Positions 3,900 through 59,940 of a DNA stretch of 64,000 nt are shown here, piece by piece. The notes under the pieces are model-generated. The model worked only from the letters and a program-made list of their open reading frames with translations, had not been told where the DNA came from and ran no database searches. Numbering within the stretch: position 1 is the stretch's first letter; each line of letters begins with the position of its first letter. The stretch is taken from NCBI RefSeq assembly GCF_050920415.1, contig NZ_CP169309.1, one strand, 5' to 3'. The DNA comes from Escherichia coli (GTDB lineage: Bacteria > Pseudomonadota > Gammaproteobacteria > Enterobacterales > Enterobacteriaceae). A program made the translations under genes and the position numbers.

Positions 3900-4130
3900 C
3901 ATGGCGGATGCAGCCTACGGTTCGGCACAGACCTGTAGGCATGATAAGACGCGTCAGCGTCGCATCAGGCATTGTGCGTCGACTGCCGGATGCGGTGTGA
4001 CGCCTTATCCGGCTTACGGTTCGGCACAGACTTGTAGGCATGATAAGACGCGTCAGCGTCGCATCAGGCATTGTGCGTCGACTGCCGGATGCGGTGTGAA
4101 CGCCTTATCCGGCTTACGAAGGGCAGACTA
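3900..4130. repeat. Tandem REP/BIME array, two ~96 bp units
   Basis: Near-identical units at about 3925-4020 and 4021-4115, each carrying GCCGGATGCGGTGTGA(A)CGCCTTATCCGGC. Confidence 0.8.
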
Positions 4131-8992: not shown

Positions 8993-9015
8993 ATTATGTA
9001 CAATCATATGTACAA
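8993..9015. repeat. Candidate integrase arm-type binding repeat, left arm
   Basis: ATTATGTACAATCATATGTACAA; near-identical copy at 56314-56335; further TGTACA motifs nearby. Confidence 0.45.
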
Positions 9016-9444: not shown

Positions 9445-9688
9445 TAGACACGTAAAATCGGTAACGGCTGGAAATAATTCAATACTCGCACTATCGGAAG
9501 TTCACCAGCCAGCCGCAGCACGTTCTTGCATACGACGTGCCTGCGGTTTCAACTCCCGCCAGCTCCACCACTTTTGATAGGACTGCAACCGGACAGCGGC
9601 AATAAAAACAGCCACTTACGGACACTGACCAGACAGTAAGCGGACTTAAAAAAGACAAAAATATACACGCAAAATGCACGTGCATTTC

Positions 9689-9724
9689 AAAAAAGCCTCT
9701 GATTGTGAAGTCAGAGGCTTTTCT
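9689..9724. terminator. Bidirectional intrinsic terminator between the dinI-like gene and tfa
   Basis: GCCTCTGA...TCAGAGGC hairpin flanked by an A-run and a T-run. Confidence 0.6.
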
Positions 9725-9768
9725 ATTTGTAACTAAGAGTAACAATTCAACATAACGCAACCTACCAA

Positions 9769-10341
9769 TTACGTCACGTCAAACGCTCTGATTGAACGCA
9801 AATCATCCAGATTATTCAGTTGTTCCTTCATCTCGCGCTGGCGTTCGTGGATTTTAAAGCCCTCCGCCACCATGGCCACCATCATGGCATCGTTCAGCGC
9901 AATAAGTTTCTCCCTGGTCAGTATGACGTTGTTATTATCCGCATCAGTCCAGAAAAAACCATCCGGAAGCAGCCCGGCCTGCGCTGTTGCAACCACGGGC
10001 GCAAGGCGTGACTGCGAGGTTTTTCCGCCATCAAAACGACGGCCATCAAACGTGAAAATAAACTCAACGTTTTCCTGACTGTCGCGCCATGCCTCAATTT
10101 CCCGCCTTTTGGCATCCTTTGCCGCTGCAATAAGTTCCGGCGTGACGGTGAACGGGGCGATTTCGCCCCATTTCCCGCTTTGCAGCTCCTGCCAGACATG
10201 CTGGCCTGTCGGGGCCATATCATCCTGTATGGCGGTATACAGGACGAACTCCGTTTCACCTTCAAATAACACCTCGCAGTCAACCGCACCATTTTCAAGA
10301 TAATGCGCGTTTCTGATGCCTTTCACCGCTCTGATTTTCAT
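9769..10341 (-). CDS. tfa: Tail fibre assembly protein
   Basis: 190 aa directly downstream of the side tail fibre gene; Tfa-like sequence. Confidence 0.75.
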   Translation of the reverse strand: MKIRAVKGIRNAHYLENGAVDCEVLFEGETEFVLYTAIQDDMAPTGQHVWQELQSGKWGEIAPFTVTPELIAAAKDAKRREIEAWRDSQENVEFIFTFDGRRFDGGKTSQSRLAPVVATAQAGLLPDGFFWTDADNNNVILTREKLIALNDAMMVAMVAEGFKIHERQREMKEQLNNLDDLRSIRAFDVT

Positions 10342-10355
10342 GTCTTATTTCCTTA

Positions 10356-12446
10356 TTACTCAATGCGTACAAAAAGACCGATATAGCCACGCGTTGTATC
10401 GTGACTAATGCGGGTCCCCGAAAGCGCCGTGTAACGACCGGGGAAGTTGTATTCACCAGCACCGCCAATCACAACCTGCGGTGAGGATGCGTATGTCCCT
10501 GTATCGCTAACCCGTGCACTCATAGCCAGAGGGCCAAGACGGGAACCCGGCACAATATCACCGAGCCCCAGAGACGCATCTGCACCAAAACTCTCCCCCT
10601 GATATGCCGCCATAATCGGCACACCAACGGCCGGGTATTTATAATATGAGCCTGAGCCCGCCATCCTGGACAGCAGGTACGCCAGTGAATCTCCGTCGTA
10701 TACAACTACCCGCGATGACATGTTCCAGCTGTTATCGCTGTCGTTGTACCGGTACTGCATATAGTGAATACAGTGTTCACCCTGATAATACTGGTTGTAG
10801 CACATCAGGGTTTTAAATTTGCGGACTGTGTCGGATTCACTGTTGGCGTACGGTGACCACATCACATCAATAATGCCGTTAAATTGCGTGGTACCGGTAA
10901 GCAGTTGCGAGGAGTCTGTAATACTGACCGCATACCGCCCCGGCGTGACTTTCTTCAACCACTCAACGAAATCAGACAGCCCCTCAAACGCCAGAGCGTC
11001 AGTGCTGGTGAATGCCTGTCCAAACCCATACATCCCGGACAGGGCCAGCCTGCCCGGTGTGCGGTCACGGATATCACTCTGGGGTTCCATCGTCGCAGCC
11101 GCGTTCAGCTCAAGCTCCGTGCGCATGGCTTCAGCCGTGTCATGCGCCAGTAATGCGCGGCCCTTCTCTGACAGCAGAGACAGTGAGGCATTCCCGTCTG
11201 TATTGAAGTACAGAAGATTATCTGCCCGTTGCGTCAGTGCGCTGATTGCCGTTAAGACGTCATTAAGCGGTTGTTTGCCTGCCAGCGCGTTTGTGATTGT
11301 CGTCGCAAAGTTCGGGTCATTGCCCAGCGCCGCAGCCAGTTCGTTCAGGGTGTCCAGAACTTCCGGTGACGAATCAACCAGCGCAGCAAGCAGTTTGCGC
11401 ACAAACGCCGCGTTCGCTGCTTCCAGACCGGCGGCATCATCCTGTGGGGTTGGGGTGGTTGGGGTGCCGGTGAAGGCCGGGCTGTCCAGTGGCGCTTTTG
11501 TTTTCGTCTCCTCCATGACGGTTTTGACAGCCTTTGGCGTGGCAGCCAGTTCCTCGCTGTCGTTATCCGTGTCACTACAGAGTTGCACCAGACCTTTTTC
11601 TGTCGTGGAGGCATTTGTTGCATTCAGGTCATCAACTATCTGCTGCGTCTCATCCCTGTACTGTTTCGCTTCCTGCGCATTGTCTGCACCTGCATCCTGG
11701 CTGGCTTTAGCCTGTCGGGCGTATTCGGCGGCACTGTTTTTGTGCCCCAGCGCCGCATTTGCCGACAGTTCTGAACTGGTCGCTGCTGATGATGCGGCAT
11801 TATGATAAAGGCGGGCGCGTTCGGCGGCATCGACTGATTCGTCCCGCGCTGTGCCTGATGACTGTGCGCTGTTTTCTGCCTCACCCGCAAAACGTTCCGC
11901 ATCATCACGGGCCGTTGCGGTTGTCGTCACATCCTGTGCCGTCTGCTGTGCGTTTCCGGCTGCAGCTTCGGCGCTCTGCTGTGTCTGATTTTTTAGCTCT
12001 TCTGCCTCATCCTTACTAACCGCCGCAGATGTTGCTGCATTGATTGCATCATCAGCAGCTGTTTCTGCTCTCTCCCTGTCACTGACCACCTGCTCAGACA
12101 AGCGAACAACGGTATTTACCATTTCCTCAAAACGCTTCATTACCTCAGGGCGTAAATCACCCTCCTTTGGTGCATCCAGAAAAGCATTCAGCGTATCCGG
12201 CTCATCTGTCGGTGCAACATAAATTTCCCCCGCCTTTACAGGAGGATGCCCTGAGCGGGACAAAAATACATCATAAAATCCCGGCTCAGCATTAATAGTA
12301 TACCCGCCATCACTTCCCGTAAGACAGGTTGCCACAATATTAACCACAACTGTCGGACTGGTTCTTCTGGCTCGCAATTCAATCGCACAGTTTACGACAG
12401 GCTCACCTGCTCCGTCCTTCAGGACACCTGAAATCTTTACTGCCAT
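10356..12446 (-). CDS. stf: Side tail fibre protein
   Basis: N-terminus MAVKISGVLKDGAGEPV like lambda Stf, Ala/Ser-rich repeats, conserved ATPKAVK...KAPLDSPA collar motif. Confidence 0.85.
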   Translation of the reverse strand: MAVKISGVLKDGAGEPVVNCAIELRARRTSPTVVVNIVATCLTGSDGGYTINAEPGFYDVFLSRSGHPPVKAGEIYVAPTDEPDTLNAFLDAPKEGDLRPEVMKRFEEMVNTVVRLSEQVVSDRERAETAADDAINAATSAAVSKDEAEELKNQTQQSAEAAAGNAQQTAQDVTTTATARDDAERFAGEAENSAQSSGTARDESVDAAERARLYHNAASSAATSSELSANAALGHKNSAAEYARQAKASQDAGADNAQEAKQYRDETQQIVDDLNATNASTTEKGLVQLCSDTDNDSEELAATPKAVKTVMEETKTKAPLDSPAFTGTPTTPTPQDDAAGLEAANAAFVRKLLAALVDSSPEVLDTLNELAAALGNDPNFATTITNALAGKQPLNDVLTAISALTQRADNLLYFNTDGNASLSLLSEKGRALLAHDTAEAMRTELELNAAATMEPQSDIRDRTPGRLALSGMYGFGQAFTSTDALAFEGLSDFVEWLKKVTPGRYAVSITDSSQLLTGTTQFNGIIDVMWSPYANSESDTVRKFKTLMCYNQYYQGEHCIHYMQYRYNDSDNSWNMSSRVVVYDGDSLAYLLSRMAGSGSYYKYPAVGVPIMAAYQGESFGADASLGLGDIVPGSRLGPLAMSARVSDTGTYASSPQVVIGGAGEYNFPGRYTALSGTRISHDTTRGYIGLFVRIE

Positions 12447-12511
12447 ATTCACCCCACAAAAAAGCCCGCCTGAACCCGGCGGGCTGTCATAACACTGTGT
12501 TACCTGGCTAA

Positions 12512-13111
12512 TCAGAACTTATAACCGACACCCACGATGAAACCGTCAGTGCGCCAGTCGCCACTGCCGGAGCCTTCATAAGCAATATCAATAGCCACGG
12601 ATTCGGTCGGGTTAAACTGCACGCCAGCTCCCCACGCCAGAGACGTGTTGCTGTGGCGACCGTCATCACTTCCGGTCAGCACATCGTGCGTTTTCCCCTT
12701 ATTGTCAGTTACGCGGAGATAATCCCCGGAGAAAGTCGACACACGGCTGTAAGCCACACCCGCCATCGCATACGCGCTGAACCATTCATTCACGCGCACA
12801 GACGGCCCCGCCATTACGCTGAACCAGCGGTTACGAACGGAATCTTCATGCCAGCGGGTATCGCTGTAACGGGTCAGCTGGCGATTCTTGTCTCCTGCAT
12901 AGCTGAATGACGTCACCATACCCAGTGTGTCCGTAAACTCATAACGGTATTTCACGTTAATCCCGTTCAGATCATCGCTGCCGGGAACGTTCGTCGAGAC
13001 ATGAAGATACCCCGCGCTCAGCGTGGACTGATGTTCAGACGCCCATGCAGGCGCACCGGATAAGGCCAGACAAATGGCTGCGGACAAAATGGCGGCATAA
13101 AGTTTACGCAT
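12512..13111 (-). CDS. lom: Lom-like outer-membrane protein (Ail/Lom/OmpX family)
   Basis: Signal peptide and beta-barrel sequence ending ...GFIVGVGYKF; position after J as in lambda. Confidence 0.85.
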   Translation of the reverse strand: MRKLYAAILSAAICLALSGAPAWASEHQSTLSAGYLHVSTNVPGSDDLNGINVKYRYEFTDTLGMVTSFSYAGDKNRQLTRYSDTRWHEDSVRNRWFSVMAGPSVRVNEWFSAYAMAGVAYSRVSTFSGDYLRVTDNKGKTHDVLTGSDDGRHSNTSLAWGAGVQFNPTESVAIDIAYEGSGSGDWRTDGFIVGVGYKF

Positions 13112-13177
13112 AATTACCTCTCGCTTTTCTGCAATAAAAAAGGCGTCATTTCTGACGCCCGTTATGGGTTATAAAAT

Positions 13178-16100
13178 TCAGCTGATACTGATACCTGCTG
13201 TGGATTTCTTCATCACCACAACCAGCAGATCGCTGATACTGGTTGTTGGTGTCCAGTTATTCGCTCCTGATGAAGATACGGTGAATGTCAGTGTCAGCGT
13301 CCCCTGTCCGGCAGGCATATCTATAACTGAGGAAAATACGCCCTGAGCATCCGTCGTGGACTGATTAAAAATCTCCTGACCATTGCGGGTCACTCTTAAC
13401 CGGCAGGTTGAATACCAGTATGACTGTTGGTTATTACTGTTGAAATTCTCATGCTTACCACCACGGAACAACACTGGCGGTATCATGACCTGCCGGTCAA
13501 ATTTCTGATCATCACTGATTCTTACCGTGATGGTGCCACTGGCATAACTGTTCGTGCGGGGGAAAGACTTGCTGACCGTTTTGACAATATCGCCTTCAAT
13601 CTGGTTGGCTGACAGTTTCCCCTTAATCTGACAGTTCTCATTTATCGTGACGTTGTTGAGCGTCCCGGAGTTCGCATTCACGTTACCGCTGATATCGGCA
13701 TTTTTAGCGGTCAGCTTTCCGTCCGGTGTCAGGGAAAATGCAGGAGGATTACCGCCGCTGGTAATGGTGGGAGCCGTCAGATATTTCAGGAACACTTCAT
13801 TCATGAATATCTGATCACCCTGACCAACAAACATCGGTTTTGTGTTGCCATTTGCAGGATTAATCATCGCAATCCTGTCTGCCGCCAGCAGCACCTGACT
13901 CTGCATGCCGTCGGGGGTGTTCTCAATACCGGCACCGATACCCGCAATATAAAGGCGACCATCCTGCATCTGCTGCAGTTTCACGGCCCACATACTGTTC
14001 AGGTTATTACTGGTGTCCGTCTGAACCTTTTGTATCTGCTGGATGGTGGCCTCCTGATCTCCCAGCTTCTGGTCCGTTGTCGTCATGATTTCACTGCTTT
14101 TTTGATCCACATACTGGCGAACCTGCGCTATCTGGCGTGCATTCTCCTCATTACTCTGACTGACCGTCTGCGTGAGTTCGCTGCTGACGTTATCCACTCT
14201 CTGGCTCACCTGTGATATACCCAGTGACAGCTCATCATTTTTTTTCGCAACCAGCTGTGTGAGGCTGTTTTCTGTCTCCCCGATTTTTTGGGTCACTTCA
14301 GCAATATCACTCTCTATCTGCTGATTGATCTCATCCTCCAGTTGCTCAACTTCACTGCGCAATGCCGAGGCATTAATACGATCGTTCAGCTCCTGCCCCA
14401 GCAGGGTGCTGTTTATTTTCCCTTCAAAAAAATTGAGATACACCTCAGCATCATTAACCGGCTGGCCAACAGCTTCCACAAACGCTGATTTACCGACGAT
14501 GTTCACACTGCGGATATAAAAGTAATAATCATGGCCCGGCCTGATATTAATACTGGCAGCTGTCCAGTACATCGCCGTACCAAGATAGCGGGCTGTGGTT
14601 TCAACCTGCCGGATATCCGTAATCTGATTTTCCGAGAACCAGAACTCAAACTGCACCGTCGGGTCATACACCGCAAGACGCGGGACTGCCGTTATCTGAA
14701 AATACCCCGGTATCAGTTCAATCTGTGACGGCGCTGCCGGGGCGTTAATCCGGAATGAGGTGGTGGCGGGTTCCCCCTGCTGGCCATAACTGTTTATCGC
14801 CCGCACCGTCAGGGTGTATTCCCCCAGTGGCAGACCACTGAAACGGTGCGCCGTGTCTGCAGTGATGGCGTTGGTCACCAGACGGCTGTCTTCACCGCTT
14901 CCACGGTTCAGGCGCAGACTGAAGCGCACACCCTTCACCACCCGCGGCGTGTCCCATTTCGCCTGCGCCAGATACTGGCCATCATCCGCGCTCACCTCCA
15001 CCGTGAGGTGCTGCACTGCCGGAGGAGTGACGCTGTTCAGGGAGCCGGACAGCGGCTCAAAGGTGGCCCCGTTATCCACAATGGCTTCTTTTTCCGGTAC
15101 GTGCTGCACCGCCGTGATGGCAAAGGTGCCGTCCGTGTTTTCCCGGATGGCCACACAGCGGAACAGGCGACGTCGAAGGCCGGGAATTTTCAGCCCCCAT
15201 ACCCCGTATGTCGCCACGCCATCAGGCAGGGCGCTGACCTGTATCCGGTCAGGAGCAGGCTGTGCCGTGATGTCCACACTCACCGGCTTACCGCTGCCAT
15301 TAATCAGGTTCACCGTGGCGGTACCGGTCTCCGGAAGCGTCACCTCCCGGTCCAGCGTCAGGGTGAGACTGGCGGCATCGATGTTCAGAATGCGCCCGCC
15401 GGTCAGGGTCCCGGCGTAGTCGTTATCACAGACTTCAATGATGTCACCGGGCGTGTGGCGCAGCCCCTGTGATCCGAGCGTGAAATCCACCGTCTGCGTT
15501 TCCAGCAGTTCGGTCTTTATCACCCACAGTCCGGCACGGTGAGCCTGACCGCGACTGGTACAGCCGAACGCATCCATCTTCAGCAGATTACGTCCGTAGC
15601 GCAGTATGGCTTCCGGGTCTTCCACCAGTTCAGTGGAGGTCTGCCAACCGTTCTGCGGGTCGGTGTAATTCACCTCCACCGCCGTGTGCCGGTCCTTCAG
15701 GGCGCTGAAGCTGTAGCGGAAGCCCACACCGTTATCATCCACCACCACATCGCTGTTGGTGTAGGGCCACACCACATCCGACGGGCGGTCCTGCACGAAC
15801 GTCAGCGTCTGCCCGTTCCATACCGGCATACAGCGCATCGCCGAGCAGAAATCACTGAGCACATCCCACGCCTTACGCTGTTGTGACAGGTACGCATTAA
15901 ACGTCATCCGCGGTTCGGTCCCCCCGAAGCCATCCGGCACCGGCTGGTCGCAGTACTGCGCAATGGCATACAGAGCCCATTTGTCCACGTCTGCGGCCCC
16001 CAGACGTTTCCCCATCCCGTAGCGCGGGTGGGTCAGCATGTCCCACAGGCACCAGGCCGGGTTGTTGCTCCAGGCCGGTTTCATACACCCGTCCCAGATA

Positions 16101-16873
16101 CCGCTGTAAGTACGTTTTTCCGGGTCATAGTTTGACGGCACCTGAATGATGCGACCGCGGATATGGTAGTTCACAGTTATCTGCTGACCGCCAAACTGCT
16201 CCGCATCCACCTGCAGGCCCACAATGGCCGTGTTCGGGTAGCACTGTTCCACATCGATGATTTCGGTGTATGACGACCACAGCGTTCTGTTCTGCAGCTG
16301 GTCCGTGGTGCTGTCAGCCGTCTCCCTGACCATCCGGATGTTAAAGGGGCGCTCAGGCAGATTATTCAGAATCACCGACGTCAGGTACTGCGAGGTGGTC
16401 TTACCGTTAATGGTGACATCCTTTTCCGTCACCCAGCTACCGTTACGCTGCAGCTGAATCAGCAGACGAACAGAAGCCGGATTACGGTCGCCCCTGGAGG
16501 TGGTCTCCACCAGTGACTGTACCCCGAAGGTGACCCGCAGGCGGTCAATGTTCGCGGACGTGATGGTACGCGTCACCGGCTTTGCCTTCGTCACTTCCAC
16601 ACCCAGCGCAGTTTCAGCCCCGGAGGACTCAAAACCTTCCGGCGGGGTCTGCTCCTGCTCCCCGGCGCGCCAGACGGCGGTCACACCGTGTATCACGGGA
16701 TTGCCGTCCGTGTCCGTCAGCGGGGTTTTATTCACCAGGATACTCTGCAGTCCCTTCACCGGGCCTTCTATCGGTCCCTCTCCAATCGCATCAATCACGC
16801 TCATCATCTGCGTGGACTTAAGATTGTCCTTTGCCTCAACTGGCGTGTGCGCCTTGCCGCCACCTTTTCCCAT
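13178..16873 (-). CDS. J: Tail tip / host specificity protein J
   Basis: Start [22 protein letters not shown] parallels lambda J; about 1231 aa; C-terminal region diverges from lambda. Confidence 0.9.
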
Positions 16874-17116
16874 TGCCTCACCCTTTACTGTGATAACTGT
16901 TACGCACAAAAGAACAGGCCCCCCGGGGATGCCTGTATCATAATGACTGAATAAAAATTCTGAGTTTATTCACATTTCCGGAAACTGACGGTTGCAGGAA
17001 TAACTCCACATTTTTACAGTTCTTCAGCCTGATAAAGGCAATTGGTCAAAACTTAACTAATCAAGGTGACTATTCATTTCTCCCGTAATATTCGTGAGTA
17101 TTACGGGAGATTTTTT

Positions 17117-46353: not shown

Positions 46354-46574
46354 GCTGCACCTCCGAGATGCTTCATGTTTTTTCCGGAGCGAAAGGCTAT
46401 AAGCGGCATACTGACGCGGTAATTACGGCCCAGCGGTTCACAAATCACCTTCTGACATTCACGGTCAACCAGGCTAACACGTAGAACATGCCCTGCAGGC
46501 GTGGTGTACCACTGACCCGGTCGAGGACAACGGAAAGTCTGATTGGTAAACCGTTTGAAAATATTCCGGATCAT
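46350..46574 (-). CDS. Hypothetical protein (74 aa)
   Basis: ORF only. Confidence 0.3.
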   Translation of the reverse strand: MIRNIFKRFTNQTFRCPRPGQWYTTPAGHVLRVSLVDRECQKVICEPLGRNYRVSMPLIAFRSGKNMKHLGGAA

Positions 46575-47722
46575 TTGCGCCCCCTTACCTCGGAAGAGTT
46601 CAGCGACGAATGAATAAGACGGGCAAGAAATGCCGCATCGTTAATTCGGTCATACAGACTTACAGCCAGCGGTGATTCAGCTTTTTCCAGCATGGGATAA
46701 AGCTGCTGCAACCAGACCTGATGAATTGATGAAATGTAGGAATAGAGTACGCTGGCGTTATGTGCAACGTCGCTCGGTACAGCGGGCTTTGAAAGCTGTT
46801 TCTCCATCTGGTTAAAGGCATTGATGTATGCCTCTTTGAACTGGGCAGCACGTTTACCCGTGAAACCCATAGCAAGAAACGCAAAACCGTCGCGGGTTAT
46901 TTGATAGCAAGGTAGTTTGCGGCCTGTGCAATCGGTGTAATCACTCACCGAAAAATTGCGGGCAGTGAATGATGCGGAGCATTCAAGCGTGCGGATCTTT
47001 TTCAGTACATCGTCATGACGTTTGGAGAAGAAGTTGGCAACAGCCAGGGATGAAGTAACAGCCTGACCATCAACGATGGCAATTTCAGGTTGAGTGAGGG
47101 TTGGGATCGTAGCCATGATGGCAGCCTCTTTGGTGATTTTTAATAACTCACCACCAAGGCTTTCCACGACCTTATTGGTGGTGAGACGTACAGGGGTGGA
47201 AATACCGGTCACCAAAGAACCCGGCCCAACCGAAGTTGGCCCTGCACGCCCCACCATAATTTGGGCGTAATGCTGCTCATGACACAAAAAAACCGCAAGA
47301 GCGCGGTTGTGCGCTTTGGTGAATTCCGGGTTTCCACGCCCGGCACCCGCTTTATAAGGTGCCTGAACAGTGTAACGTCCCGGAATGGCAGAATCAATGT
47401 GCTGGTGGTCCTTCACACTCAACAAAATCACGCCTGAATTTCCACAAAGGGCTAAAGCACTCATGCGGGTAGTCTTTGCGAAGATAGATAACGCGCTGTG
47501 TTTCTGGCTCCCAACGAATAACATGAACATAAAGTCCTCTTCCGTCACGAAACCAGCGGTTAAGTTCCTGCACAACTCGCCCCCCACAGTCAGGTAAAGT
47601 TCTCTGTGGTTACTTACAGCCAGGAGATTTGGTAATCTGCATTCATGCCGTAACAACAGGTGTTCAGCGACGCTGACCACCAGCTGTTGCGACAAATGGT
47701 TATTTGCCGTTAAACTGTTCAT
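46571..47722 (-). CDS. Rha-family phage regulatory protein with an uninterrupted ~200 aa upstream in-frame extension
   Basis: Rha-like domain starts at MATIPTLTQPEIAIVDGQAVTSSLAVANFF (about 47116); the 5' 202 codons have no stop and no recognised family. Confidence 0.5.
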   Translation of the reverse strand: MNSLTANNHLSQQLVVSVAEHLLLRHECRLPNLLAVSNHRELYLTVGGELCRNLTAGFVTEEDFMFMLFVGSQKHSALSIFAKTTRMSALALCGNSGVILLSVKDHQHIDSAIPGRYTVQAPYKAGAGRGNPEFTKAHNRALAVFLCHEQHYAQIMVGRAGPTSVGPGSLVTGISTPVRLTTNKVVESLGGELLKITKEAAIMATIPTLTQPEIAIVDGQAVTSSLAVANFFSKRHDDVLKKIRTLECSASFTARNFSVSDYTDCTGRKLPCYQITRDGFAFLAMGFTGKRAAQFKEAYINAFNQMEKQLSKPAVPSDVAHNASVLYSYISSIHQVWLQQLYPMLEKAESPLAVSLYDRINDAAFLARLIHSSLNSSEVRGRK

Positions 47723-48282
47723 GCGTTAGTTTCTCCACAGACACAAAACGCCACGACGCCCGGAGCTGCACACTCGCGGGCGTCACTCTTTTCTGGAGCG
47801 CAAAAGATTTTGTAGACCAGTGCTGCATGCTCCTGGAGCTTCGAAATTGACAGATACAACTCATCATTAATTGCTGTCTGCTCGTGTGGCTCCACTACCC
47901 CATCTTCGATTGCCGAACGAATCTGCTTTGAGTAACTCCCGATCTGTTCGATGACTTCCAGCAGGCGCTGGTTTATATCGGCGTTCTCTACTTCCTCAAT
48001 TTCAGGAAGCGATACAAACACCCCACCAGCAGACTGTGCGACAGCATCCGCAATGTAGTGAGTGCCAGCCGCGCGCTGTAAAATCATTGCCCATCCCAGC
48101 GGGAAAATCTGATCGCCATCTGCACGAAGGCGGTTGAATAAAGCGTTCTCTGTTACATCCAGCCACTCAGCAGCTTCAGCGTAACCCCCCGGCAACGCCG
48201 CGATAGTTTTTCTGACAGCTTTCACGTACCACTCAGGCTGTTTTTCTACTTTCCAGTGATGCTTACCCACGGTTAGCCTCAT
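47719..48282 (-). CDS. Putative CII-like early regulatory protein
   Basis: 187 aa immediately downstream of cro; assignment by position and weak recollection of the family. Confidence 0.35.
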   Translation of the reverse strand: MRLTVGKHHWKVEKQPEWYVKAVRKTIAALPGGYAEAAEWLDVTENALFNRLRADGDQIFPLGWAMILQRAAGTHYIADAVAQSAGGVFVSLPEIEEVENADINQRLLEVIEQIGSYSKQIRSAIEDGVVEPHEQTAINDELYLSISKLQEHAALVYKIFCAPEKSDARECAAPGVVAFCVCGETNA

Positions 48283-54053: not shown

Positions 54054-54773
54054 TTAAATCTCTGTTTCTTTTCCTGCTCGGCTCAACCAATACTCCATTG
54101 TTTGAGTATGAATCTTTTCAGCGTATATTTTATCAATTAATTTATCTTGTTTTTCTTTAATGACTTCACGCAGTGAATCATATAACATAAAAAAACGTTC
54201 ATCATCTTCCTCATTATTACCGTAATTTATTTGATTGAGCTCTGAAAAAATATGATAGTACCTTTTTTTCTTGGTCCCCGGCAATATTAAAACCAAGCCA
54301 CATTGATCATATTCGAATTCACCTTTATGGGCAGCAAAGTTATGTCTAACATTCATAATAGAATCATGTAAATCTCTATATTTTTCTGGCACATGCTTTC
54401 TCTGCAATGTGAATCGACGCCCTTTCGCCTCTGTAAAACACTTACCGTAAGTAACAACTTTTGATATAAACAAAGACTTTAATATTAGATTCTTTTCTAA
54501 ATCCGGATAAATAAAGTGTTGTTCTTTATTAATGTTATTACAAATATTTTTTATTATATTCTCCCAACCAATAACATTCCGAAGATCTTTATCAAGCAAC
54601 TGTAAGGCCACATATTGTTCTACAAAGCGGCCTTTTAAAGGTATTCGTGGTAATATTACACCTTTCTGCTTATAAATTCTTTCTATCGTATTATCTGGAT
54701 ATTGGATCTTCCTTATTTCTATTCCGTCTTCTTCTGATACCCTTACTAATGGTTCATTTTTTAACTTTGACAT
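54054..54773 (-). CDS. Hypothetical protein (239 aa), strongly AT-rich, between int and xis
   Basis: Clean ORF co-directional with int; no family recognised; contains RHNFAAH (an R-x5-H pattern). Confidence 0.5.
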   Translation of the reverse strand: MSKLKNEPLVRVSEEDGIEIRKIQYPDNTIERIYKQKGVILPRIPLKGRFVEQYVALQLLDKDLRNVIGWENIIKNICNNINKEQHFIYPDLEKNLILKSLFISKVVTYGKCFTEAKGRRFTLQRKHVPEKYRDLHDSIMNVRHNFAAHKGEFEYDQCGLVLILPGTKKKRYYHIFSELNQINYGNNEEDDERFFMLYDSLREVIKEKQDKLIDKIYAEKIHTQTMEYWLSRAGKETEI

Positions 54774-55012: not shown

Positions 55013-56269
55013 TCAAAGTGTGCTAGGAGATTTGGTTATGTTCAGGTGATACAAACCGTCAGTTTGACAATTAACAATCGATTCAACCCTCTTCCACCAT
55101 GCCAGGTAAGCTTTACGCTGTTCTTCTAGATAATCACTCTTATCATAAACTTGCCATACCCCTGGCAGCTTATGACCAAGCATAATTTCTGCGATATGAG
55201 GCGCAGTAAGATCAGAAAAATTTGTTCGAGCTGTACGTCTCAAGTCATGAAGAGACCAATGAGGGAATTGATATCCTAAACACCGCCATGCGTACTGCAT
55301 TAAATTGTAAGGCAGCGACTGCAATGATGTCCGACCAACGGGTTCCCTGCTTCCTTCCTTAGTAAAAAGCATATCGGAACCATTGTTCATAGAGATAGCG
55401 TACTTTATAAGCTCTTCAACCGGTTCAATAATGGGCCGCTTTAGCGGTTCGCCTGTTATCTCCCCAGTCTTATGTCGTTCTGGTGGTACAGTCCATACTT
55501 TATTAATGAAATCAAAATCGTCCACCCGGGCGGTAATTAGCTCTGAACTACGGCAACCAAAATGCAGCAATAGTTTAATGAAGGCCCGGTATTTAGGAAC
55601 CATTCGAGAACCATCGATCGCAGCATAAAGGATTTTAATTTCATCATGTGTCAGAAACCGTTTCTTCTGACCTTTACGGATATCCATATCTTTACCCGTG
55701 ATATCCGACAGCGGGCGAGTTTCAATGAGCTTTCTCTTATACGCCCAGACATGGGCCTGCTTTGCGTTAATTAGCAATCGGTCTGCTATTGCTGGAGTCT
55801 TAGTGCTAAGAGGCTCCAGGACTTCTAACCAATCATGCAATGTAGCTGCATCGTGAGGGATATTCCCGATTTTAGAGAACAGGTGCAGCTCAAACGAGCG
55901 AAGTATCTGTTCAGAACCTTTTTTATTTTTTACACAATATGCTTCATACCAAGCACGGATCACAGACTCTACCGTCATGGCTTCAGTAGCTTTTCGTTTT
56001 TCAGCCTGCTTGACCAATCGTGGATTACGGTTTGACTCGAGTTCACCACGAAGACGGATAACTTCTTCTCTGGCCTCTTTTAATCCAGTTGCCGGGTAAG
56101 TTCCGATATCAAGACGCTCACCTTTCCCTGCCCATTGATAACGATATTGGAACACTACGCGACCTTTCGGTGATACTCTGACAGACAGACCATCACGATC
56201 GGATTTAACCAAAACCTTATCACGTTCCTTTCCAACGACTGAACGCAACCACGCATCAGACAGCGCCAT
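55013..56269 (-). CDS. int: Tyrosine site-specific integrase
   Basis: 418 aa; C-terminal catalytic region with ...HDLRRT... and ...MLGH...; adjacent to the att core. Confidence 0.9.
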   Translation of the reverse strand: MALSDAWLRSVVGKERDKVLVKSDRDGLSVRVSPKGRVVFQYRYQWAGKGERLDIGTYPATGLKEAREEVIRLRGELESNRNPRLVKQAEKRKATEAMTVESVIRAWYEAYCVKNKKGSEQILRSFELHLFSKIGNIPHDAATLHDWLEVLEPLSTKTPAIADRLLINAKQAHVWAYKRKLIETRPLSDITGKDMDIRKGQKKRFLTHDEIKILYAAIDGSRMVPKYRAFIKLLLHFGCRSSELITARVDDFDFINKVWTVPPERHKTGEITGEPLKRPIIEPVEELIKYAISMNNGSDMLFTKEGSREPVGRTSLQSLPYNLMQYAWRCLGYQFPHWSLHDLRRTARTNFSDLTAPHIAEIMLGHKLPGVWQVYDKSDYLEEQRKAYLAWWKRVESIVNCQTDGLYHLNITKSPSTL

Positions 56270-56313: not shown

Positions 56314-56335
56314 ATTATGTACAAGCATATGTACA
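56314..56335. repeat. Candidate integrase arm-type binding repeat, right arm
   Basis: ATTATGTACAAGCATATGTACA, near-identical to 8993-9015; further TGTACA motifs at 56280-56310. Confidence 0.45.
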
Positions 56336-59319: not shown

Positions 59320-59500
<181 letters not shown>

Positions 59501-59617: not shown

Positions 59618-59704
59618 GCGAAGGTGGCGGAATTGGTAGACGCGCTAGCTTCAGGTGTTAGTGTCCTTACGGACGTGGGGGTTCAAGTCCCCCCCCTCGC
59701 ACCA
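59618..59704 (+). tRNA. leuQ: tRNA-Leu (anticodon CAG), 87 nt
   Basis: GCGAAGGTGGCGGAATTGGTAGACGCGCTAGCTTCAGGTGTTAGTGTCCTTACGGACGTGGGGGTTCAAGTCCCCCCCCTCGCACCA; which of leuQ/P/V each copy is depends on orientation. Confidence 0.9.
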
Positions 59705-59732
59705 AAAACCACGTTGATATTGCTCGCACTGG

Positions 59733-59819
59733 GCGAAGGTGGCGGAATTGGTAGACGCGCTAGCTTCAGGTGTTAGTGTTCTTACGGACGTGGGGGTTCA
59801 AGTCCCCCCCCTCGCACCA
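59733..59819 (+). tRNA. leuP: tRNA-Leu (anticodon CAG), 87 nt, one variable-arm substitution
   Basis: Same sequence with GTGTTC instead of GTGTCC. Confidence 0.9.
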
Positions 59820-59853
59820 AACGAGGCGATATCAAAAAAAGTAAGATGACTGT

Positions 59854-59940
59854 GCGAAGGTGGCGGAATTGGTAGACGCGCTAGCTTCAGGTGTTAGTGT
59901 CCTTACGGACGTGGGGGTTCAAGTCCCCCCCCTCGCACCA
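59854..59940 (+). tRNA. leuV: tRNA-Leu (anticodon CAG), 87 nt
   Basis: Third tandem copy, identical to the first. Confidence 0.9.

Follow-up and report, generated by a model that had tools for sequence, protein, structure and literature searches.

The tail tip gene J of the window, the 64,000-nucleotide stretch of Escherichia coli DNA that we analysed, is very probably best explained as the intact, mosaic gpJ of a lambda-like prophage, with a tip that binds the trimeric porin OmpC. The gene is intact, has the full domain architecture, is mosaic in structure, and codes for a receptor-binding domain (RBD) whose sequence is identical to that of a domain solved in complex with OmpC. Dependence on OmpC is known from the literature for A8 particles and for phi330, and would extend to the window prophage by its likeness to them. 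Judged from its sequence, the expected receptor of this J is OmpC and not LamB.

The J gene, its neighbourhood and the host prophage

Gene J (tail tip attachment protein/central tail fibre) occupies positions 13178..16873 on the minus strand as an intact ORF of 1231 codons plus a stop. It starts with an ATG at 16873, with GGGTGAGG just before it, and its stop codon lies at 13178-13180. The protein contains six gpJ-specific Pfam domains, all scoring above their cut-offs and arranged in the lambda order:

J aa 86-207: FNIII-A_GpJ
J aa 330-497: Phage-tail_3
J aa 609-712: Ig_J
J aa 714-816: Ig_J_second
J aa 943-1071: Phage_Tail_Tip
J aa 1107-1231: Ig_GpJ_C (PF12421, 'Tip attachment protein J, C-terminal receptor binding domain')

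Following the domain naming of Ge & Wang 2024 (PMC11101478), we divided J into these parts (with the evidence in brackets):

14450..16873, minus strand: hub domains and two FNIII/Ig domains, aa 1-808, closing the tail tube (Pfam, nucleotide identity)
13994..14449, minus strand: alpha-helical shaft (AHS), aa 809-960 (a gap here in the alignments to lambda, 21, 434 and phi330; without Pfam coverage)
13598..13993, minus strand: central straight fibre (beta-prism), aa 961-1092 (Pfam Phage_Tail_Tip, nucleotide identity)
13634..13813, minus strand: conserved linker in the beta-prism part, aa ~1021-1080, the site of module exchange (nucleotide identity)
from ~13633 to 13181, minus strand: divergent phi330/A8-type module, starting at aa 1081 (nucleotide identity)
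13181..13597, minus strand: Ig-like RBD, aa 1093-1231 (Pfam Ig_GpJ_C, PDB match, AF2)

The protein belongs with the lambda-type J proteins by its domain series (the Pfam order, with a shaft that is helical by prediction), by collinear full-length homology in BLASTP with one large gap, which falls in the shaft, and by its position in the tail gene cluster, with Lambda_tail_I upstream and Ail_Lom, phage_tail_N and DUF4376 downstream. The annotation of the closest genome agrees with this position. The gene order is lambda-like (M-L-K-I-J-lom-stf), the upstream set of head and tail genes is apparently complete, and the following features lie downstream of J:

13131..13160, minus strand: intrinsic-terminator-like hairpin and T-run directly after J (consensus scan, sequence)
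12512..13111, minus strand: lom, an Ail/Lom outer-membrane beta-barrel, the downstream neighbour as in lambda (Pfam Ail_Lom, E = 1.5e-119)
10356..12452, minus strand: side tail fibre (Stf-like, 698 aa), an accessory adsorption organelle (Pfam phage_tail_N, Phage_fiber_2)
9769..10341, minus strand: DUF4376 protein, placed where a tail-fibre assembly chaperone would be expected (Pfam DUF4376)

Phages 21 and 434 have a terminator annotated at the same spot behind J. The resemblance of the Stf-like protein to the Stf of phage 21 is limited to the N-terminal ~250 aa (37%), and the DUF4376 gene is found in the same gene order in E. coli MFDS1022581.

The element as a whole is a lambda-like prophage of ~47 kb that sits in E. 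coli between prfC and yjjG. It is flanked by near-identical 22-bp att repeats, ATTATGTACAA[T/G]CATATGTACA, at 8993-9014 and 56314-56335, and codes for a tyrosine integrase (55013..56269). The window also has the portal-sized ORF (28041..29642, 533 aa) and the other head and tail ORFs at full length.

Divergence from lambda, mosaic structure and the long shaft

With the J of lambda (NC_001416, 1132 aa) as the reference, BLASTP identity was 73% for aa 1-854 and 54% for the last ~290-297 residues. When the alignment was divided into blocks of 50 columns, identity was ~0.7-0.86 over most of J, including 0.80-0.82 at aa 999-1098, and went down to 0.40-0.43 over aa 1099-1231. Accordingly, 54/127 positions of the last block are identical to lambda versus 726/997 elsewhere (Fisher p = 3e-11). 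The initial annotation had claimed that the C-terminal end of J diverges from lambda; this is borne out, with 42% identity over the last ~130 residues and ~73% elsewhere, and the high C-terminal identity to lambda J that it had named as speaking against the claim is absent from the alignment (42%). The extent of the divergence needs some trimming. At the nucleotide level, the break from lambda lies at ~aa 1081 (window position ~13633), and the flagged interval 13178..13700 is made up of the stop codon, the divergent domain (13181..13633) and ~67 nt of linker (13634..13700) that are still ~87% identical to lambda DNA. The last ~133-150 residues do diverge, while the first ~67 nt of the interval are conserved linker.

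We then mapped the mosaic structure of the gene by sliding nucleotide identity against five J genes. The window J is a mosaic that combines a phi330-like hub, a rare long shaft, a phage-21-like prism and an RBD of the A8/phi330 type:

codons 1-660, hub and first Ig domain: ~90% (nucleotide) to the Stx2a phage phi330; ~75% to lambda/21/434
codons ~811-960, helical shaft: only PhiR40_1, ~75%
codons 961-1050, beta-prism: 88-94% (nucleotide) to phage 21
codons 1021-1050, first part of the linker: 83-90% to lambda, 21 and 434; 72% to phi330
codons 1051-1080, second part of the linker: 86-88% to lambda, 21, 434 and phi330
codons 1081-1231, RBD: 97-100% to phi330

In amino acid sequence, the RBD is identical to that of phi330 at 131/133 positions and to that of phage 21 at 107/133, and shares ~42% identity with those of lambda and 434. 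The J of E. coli GB089 has the same shaft (100% aa) and prism (97% aa) joined to another hub (74%) and another RBD (62%). Thus, the hub, the shaft with the prism, and the tip are exchanged independently of each other, and the tip is swapped at the conserved linker. The G+C content falls from 0.60 to 0.49 at ~14500. A foreign insertion was considered as its source and rejected; the drop falls where the phi330-like N-terminal part gives way to the shaft-prism-RBD modules and, therefore, reflects ordinary lambdoid mosaicism.

The only unusual feature of this J is its shaft, which lies outside the flagged interval and is rare in databases. It comprises 152 residues (aa 809-960), compared to ~53 (809-861) in lambda (PMC11101478). 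The net insertion of 99 residues (~14069..14374), by which J reaches 1231 aa versus 1132 aa, is a bigger difference from lambda than that of the tip, and had gone unnoticed in the initial annotation. The hydrophobic period of the shaft is 3.65, and a single-chain AF2 model shows one helix spanning aa ~808-985 with pLDDT >90 for aa ~840-965. Its BLOSUM autocorrelation peaks at lags of 29 (z = 7.6), 58, 11 and 18, which indicates about four degenerate 29-residue (11+18) repeats. The shaft was found in only 2/50,697 phage records and in 31 of 5,426 E. coli genomes, with three strong representatives among 1.84 billion proteins. In one representative (P0137), which has a non-Ig C-terminus, the shaft is longer still and clearly contains tandem duplications, suggesting growth through repeat duplication. 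The architecture is viable, as the plaque-forming PhiR40_1 has a J of 1232 aa with a similarly long shaft. It is conceivable, if rather doubtful, that a repeat-built shaft shuffling apart from the tip serves as an adaptive 'length dial' or alters the relay of the signal to the hub. As a length dial, a shaft that, if fully helical, would be ~15 nm longer than that of lambda may let the tip reach porins beneath a long O-antigen or capsule.

The receptor-binding domain and its expected receptor

The best match of J among PDB sequences is 9wca_J, 'A8 gpJ 713' (E = 4e-164), with 100% identity over aa 1065-1231 (167 residues) and 190/191 over aa 1041-1231, the sole mismatch being one linker residue. 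Modelled by AF2, aa 1062-1231 form an all-beta sandwich (pLDDT 83), for which the top Foldseek matches are 9wcb and 9wca, at 99% identity over 170 columns (9wcb_F, 9wca_F); these are followed at 46-47% by the fibre of lambda, in 8xck and, with LamB, in 8xcj. PDB 9wca is the 'Closed state of A8 gpJ 713 central tail fiber', and 9wcb is titled 'Open state of A8 gpJ 713 central tail fiber with OmpC G17 from E. coli EDL933'; 'gpJ713' denotes a gpJ fragment that begins at residue 713, a name from Ge & Wang (PMC11101478). A literature search for a paper on 9wca/9wcb found none, and we take the 'A8 gpJ 713' of the PDB to be the A8 of the Nature paper (Brodel et al., PMC11338833), given the shared name and the OmpC partner from EDL933.

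By its sequence identity to this OmpC-solved domain, the RBD groups with the A8/phi330-type OmpC binders. Its similarity to the LamB-binding RBD of lambda is low (42% identity and indels in the last 127 aligned residues). The bottom loops L1-L4 of lambda are described without residue numbers in the text of PMC11101478, and were compared through the alignment indels and the loops of the model. We located two variable segments between the conserved strands:

13421..13450, minus strand: variable hairpin, aa 1142-1151, equivalent to phi330 E953-S962; a loop between strands in the model
13247..13264, minus strand: variable loop ANNWTP, aa 1204-1209, equivalent to phi330 A1015-P1020

In phi330, the hairpin is predicted to enter the OmpC barrel and A1015-P1020 to contact the OmpC rim (PMC12502783). 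Both segments are identical between the window J and phi330, and the two differences between their RBDs are both in the short loop TNSY, which is not among the predicted OmpC contacts (PMC12502783). In an alignment of 27 RBD types, the hairpin and the ANNWTP segment form indel-rich hypervariable blocks between conserved strands; the set of RBD homologues consists mostly of partial proteins of <300 aa and is fit for alignment, not for counts of architectures.

The OmpC specificity of such RBDs has been studied in two settings. A8 is a lambda gpJ chimera with the gpJ C-terminus of a naturally occurring phage of E. coli (Brodel et al., bioRxiv 10.1101/2022.09.30.509847; Nature 2024, PMC11338833). 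The recipient in the screen of the gpJ chimeras lacked lamB, and A8 delivers DNA through OmpC, recognising the OmpC of both MG1655 and EDL933 (Brodel et al., PMC11338833). OmpC alleles differ, and A8, 1A2 or both covered 21 of the 23 variants tried (Brodel et al., PMC11338833). As the side fibres of the A8 particles were swapped for an LPS-binding P2 chimera (Brodel et al., PMC11338833), the specificity for OmpC maps to the J tip. For phi330, plaquing on 54 Keio outer-membrane mutants was lost only on ompC (Microbiol Spectr 2025, PMC12502783), and on BW25113 ompC::kan it was restored by Plac-ompC (PMC12502783). The different receptor specificity proposed in the initial annotation, thus, finds support in an RBD that, at the level of its residues, is near-identical to the OmpC-binding domains of A8 and phi330.

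The sole serious alternative is that the RBD still binds LamB like that of phage 21, its divergence being another solution for the same porin. Indeed, phage 21 natively uses LamB with an RBD as far from lambda's (~42%) as that of the window, so C-terminal divergence alone is insufficient proof of a new receptor. However, LamB use is contradicted by the phi330 and A8 data: phi330, whose RBD matches at 131/133 positions, forms no plaques on an ompC deletion strain that retains lamB, and the A8 chimera, from a screen on a lamB-deleted recipient, acts through OmpC. Further, the identical domain has been solved on OmpC, and 26 substitutions separate the window J from phage 21 within aa 1099-1231. 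We checked the window J for I1025T, the one substitution by which phage 21 gains the use of OmpC, and found it absent, with the Ile kept in GDIVK (aa 1096); hence, OmpC use must reside in these 26 RBD substitutions. Taken together, we regard continued binding of LamB as very improbable.

It could also be argued that the side tail fibres mainly set the host range and that the divergence of the J tip is neutral drift, given the distinct 698-aa Stf with its DUF4376 partner downstream of J, and the binding of OmpC by the Ur-lambda Stf itself. Against this, A8 delivery stayed OmpC-dependent with the Stf replaced by the P2 chimera, and the differences and indels between RBD types cluster in the distal loops and spare the conserved strands, a pattern unlike drift; we find such an explanation extremely improbable. 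Defective lambdoid prophages are common in E. coli, and in the homologous prophage of the closest complete genome the portal gene is frameshifted. J might, therefore, be the relic of a defective prophage that now lacks a role in adsorption, with its sequence telling of possible rather than actual binding. The window, in contrast, has an intact J, full-length portal-sized and other head and tail ORFs, an integrase and flanking att repeats. This makes a relic unlikely, and it would in any case bear on the activity of the prophage and not on the identity of the RBD.

For a functional OmpC-binding J, a mechanism can be proposed from the triggering of lambda as derived from the lambda fibre structures (PMC11101478). 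At the fibre tip, by analogy, the distal loops of the three RBDs would enter the porin trimer through its extracellular mouth. Upon binding, the bases of the RBDs would spread, and the beta-prism would tighten and twist. The helical shaft would then flip back, and the FNIII strings would let the hub go, such that the tube opens and the DNA is ejected. The existence of closed and open states of A8 gpJ713 indicates that the same two-state switch works with OmpC. We infer that the window prophage would make particles and that, as in lambda, this triggering sequence would be unchanged despite a shaft three times longer.

The flagged C-terminus of J is already known as a common variant, with a dedicated Pfam family and with its receptor and complex structure published or deposited. 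DNA at least 95% identical to that of the RBD is present in 1,526 chromosomes or plasmids from 5,426 complete E. coli genomes, as well as in 44 phage records, for the most part of Stx1a- and Stx2a-converting phages. An identical 1231-aa protein is listed by NCBI as 'MULTISPECIES: phage attachment tail tip protein J [Escherichia]'. For annotation, the prophage is to be read as an OmpC-dependent rather than a LamB-dependent lambdoid phage, which bears on the strains that it might lysogenise and on the routes to resistance (through mutations in ompC/ompR instead of malT/lamB). Two known points can also be seen here, namely that lambdoid J RBDs are exchanged at a conserved linker, the junction used for the A8 delivery vector, and that overall similarity predicts the receptor poorly, as the 81%-identical domain of phage 21 uses LamB. 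Beyond correct annotation it is of little importance, the long repeat-built shaft being the sole element possibly worth more work.

Relation to known lambdoid systems

Among the known systems, A8 (PDB 9wca, 9wcb) shares its last 167 residues and the Ig-like fold with the window J, and its receptor is OmpC. A8 is engineered, with its hub, shaft and prism from lambda; the window J, in contrast, is natural and presents the same RBD on a phage-21-like prism and a 152-residue shaft, 99 residues longer. The J of the Stx2a phage vB_EcoS_phi330 (PV189401) is 98.7% identical to the window J in its last 150 residues, but has a short shaft and another prism (86/130 identical, aa 941-1070). A literature search for receptor data on ECOR-derived PhiR phages with this RBD or a long shaft returned nothing relevant.

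Phage 21 (OL657228) is the closest classical phage after phi330, with 81% identity over the last 150 aa. Its prism is 94% identical (122/130) and its RBD 80% (107/133), with the same RBD loop lengths, whereas its shaft, at ~81 residues, is ~71 shorter than that of the window J. Its native receptor is LamB; as it gains OmpC use by the single I1025T substitution, receptor choice is labile in this clade. Phage 434 (OL657226) has a J of the same fold family, with an RBD ~42% identical to that of the window and longer loops, and also uses OmpC (PMC11101478; PMC12502783). Thus, at least two divergent RBD types have come to bind OmpC. Finally, the J of lambda (NC_001416; PDB 8xck, 8xcj, 8iyk) shares the domain order and the gene neighbourhood with the window J and is ~81% identical to it over the prism and linker, but differs in its RBD (42%, with indels in the variable loops) and binds LamB.

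Length, rarity and shuffling of the J shaft

The alpha-helical shaft of the prophage tail-tip protein J comprises 152 residues in the window, as against about 53 in lambda.

13994..14449, minus strand: alpha-helical shaft of J (aa 809-960)
NZ_CP013663.1, 356971..360669: J locus of E. coli GB089 (L008)

About four degenerate repeats of 29 residues make up this shaft (autocorrelation z = 7.6 at lag 29), which displays a hydrophobic period of 3.65 and is predicted to form a single long helix. The long shaft is rare: it was found in 2 of 50,697 phage records and in 31 of 5,426 E. coli genomes, with three strong representatives among 1.84 billion proteins. The J of GB089 matches that of the window in the long shaft and the beta-prism (100% and 97% aa, respectively), whereas its hub differs, as does its receptor-binding domain (62%). 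Among the database proteins with a J-type shaft, P0137, whose C-terminus is non-Ig, has one that is longer still and clearly contains tandem duplications; P0138 combines a long shaft with yet another type of C-terminal domain. Comparison of these sequences points to independent shuffling of the shaft, hub and tip of J.

Surroundings of J

16874..17116: spacer between I and J
10356..12452, minus strand: side tail fibre
9491..10341, minus strand: DUF4376 protein and 89-aa ORF, downstream of the side tail fibre

The I-J spacer measures 243 bp in the window compared to about 60 bp in lambda, and it is equal in length in E. coli MFDS1022581. It features an AT-rich stretch, a hairpin that, together with its T-run, resembles a terminator (~16907-16936), and a perfect 12-bp inverted repeat, TCTCCCGTAATA…TATTACGGGAGA (~17079-17110). 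The likeness of the side tail fibre to phage 21 Stf is limited to the N-terminal ~250 aa (37%), the distal part being unrelated. The 89-aa ORF (9491..9760, minus strand), which follows the DUF4376 protein, had no match in a Pfam search.

Prophage ends and chromosomal flanks

8993..9014 and 56314..56335: 22-bp direct repeat, two copies with one mismatch
55013..56269: tyrosine integrase, adjoining the repeat
54054..54773, minus strand: 239-aa ORF within the prophage, right by its integrase end
3938..4114 and 59396..59478: three Rfam matches to naRNA4 (CssrE, REP-type), chromosomal flanks
59618-59940: leuV-P-Q tRNA-Leu(cag) triplet, chromosomal flank

The ~47-kb prophage is bracketed by the direct repeats (ATTATGTACAA[T/G]CATATGTACA), which are probably attL and attR; the repeat overlaps the 5' end of prfC. 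A Pfam search returned no match for the 239-aa ORF.

Late-region cargo and a putative antirepressor region

37260..39641, minus strand: late-region cargo
37260-37458: STnc100 sRNA match
37685..38116: TerB-domain ORF
38290-38543: tRNA-Met(cat) and tRNA-Arg(tct)
38583..39641: N6/N4 DNA methylase ORF
47174..47362, minus strand: C4 antisense RNA and isrK, side by side (Rfam matches)
46571..47722: Ash/Rha-domain ORF
47719..48282: CII(CP76)-like ORF

No stx-sized ORF lies in the cargo (37260..39641); in Stx phages, stx sits at the matching site. The C4 and isrK matches overlap the CII(CP76)-like ORF, and the Ash/Rha-domain ORF is directly downstream of them in the order of minus-strand transcription. 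This region resembles an antirepressor module of the P1/P7 type, under antisense control, within a lambdoid prophage.
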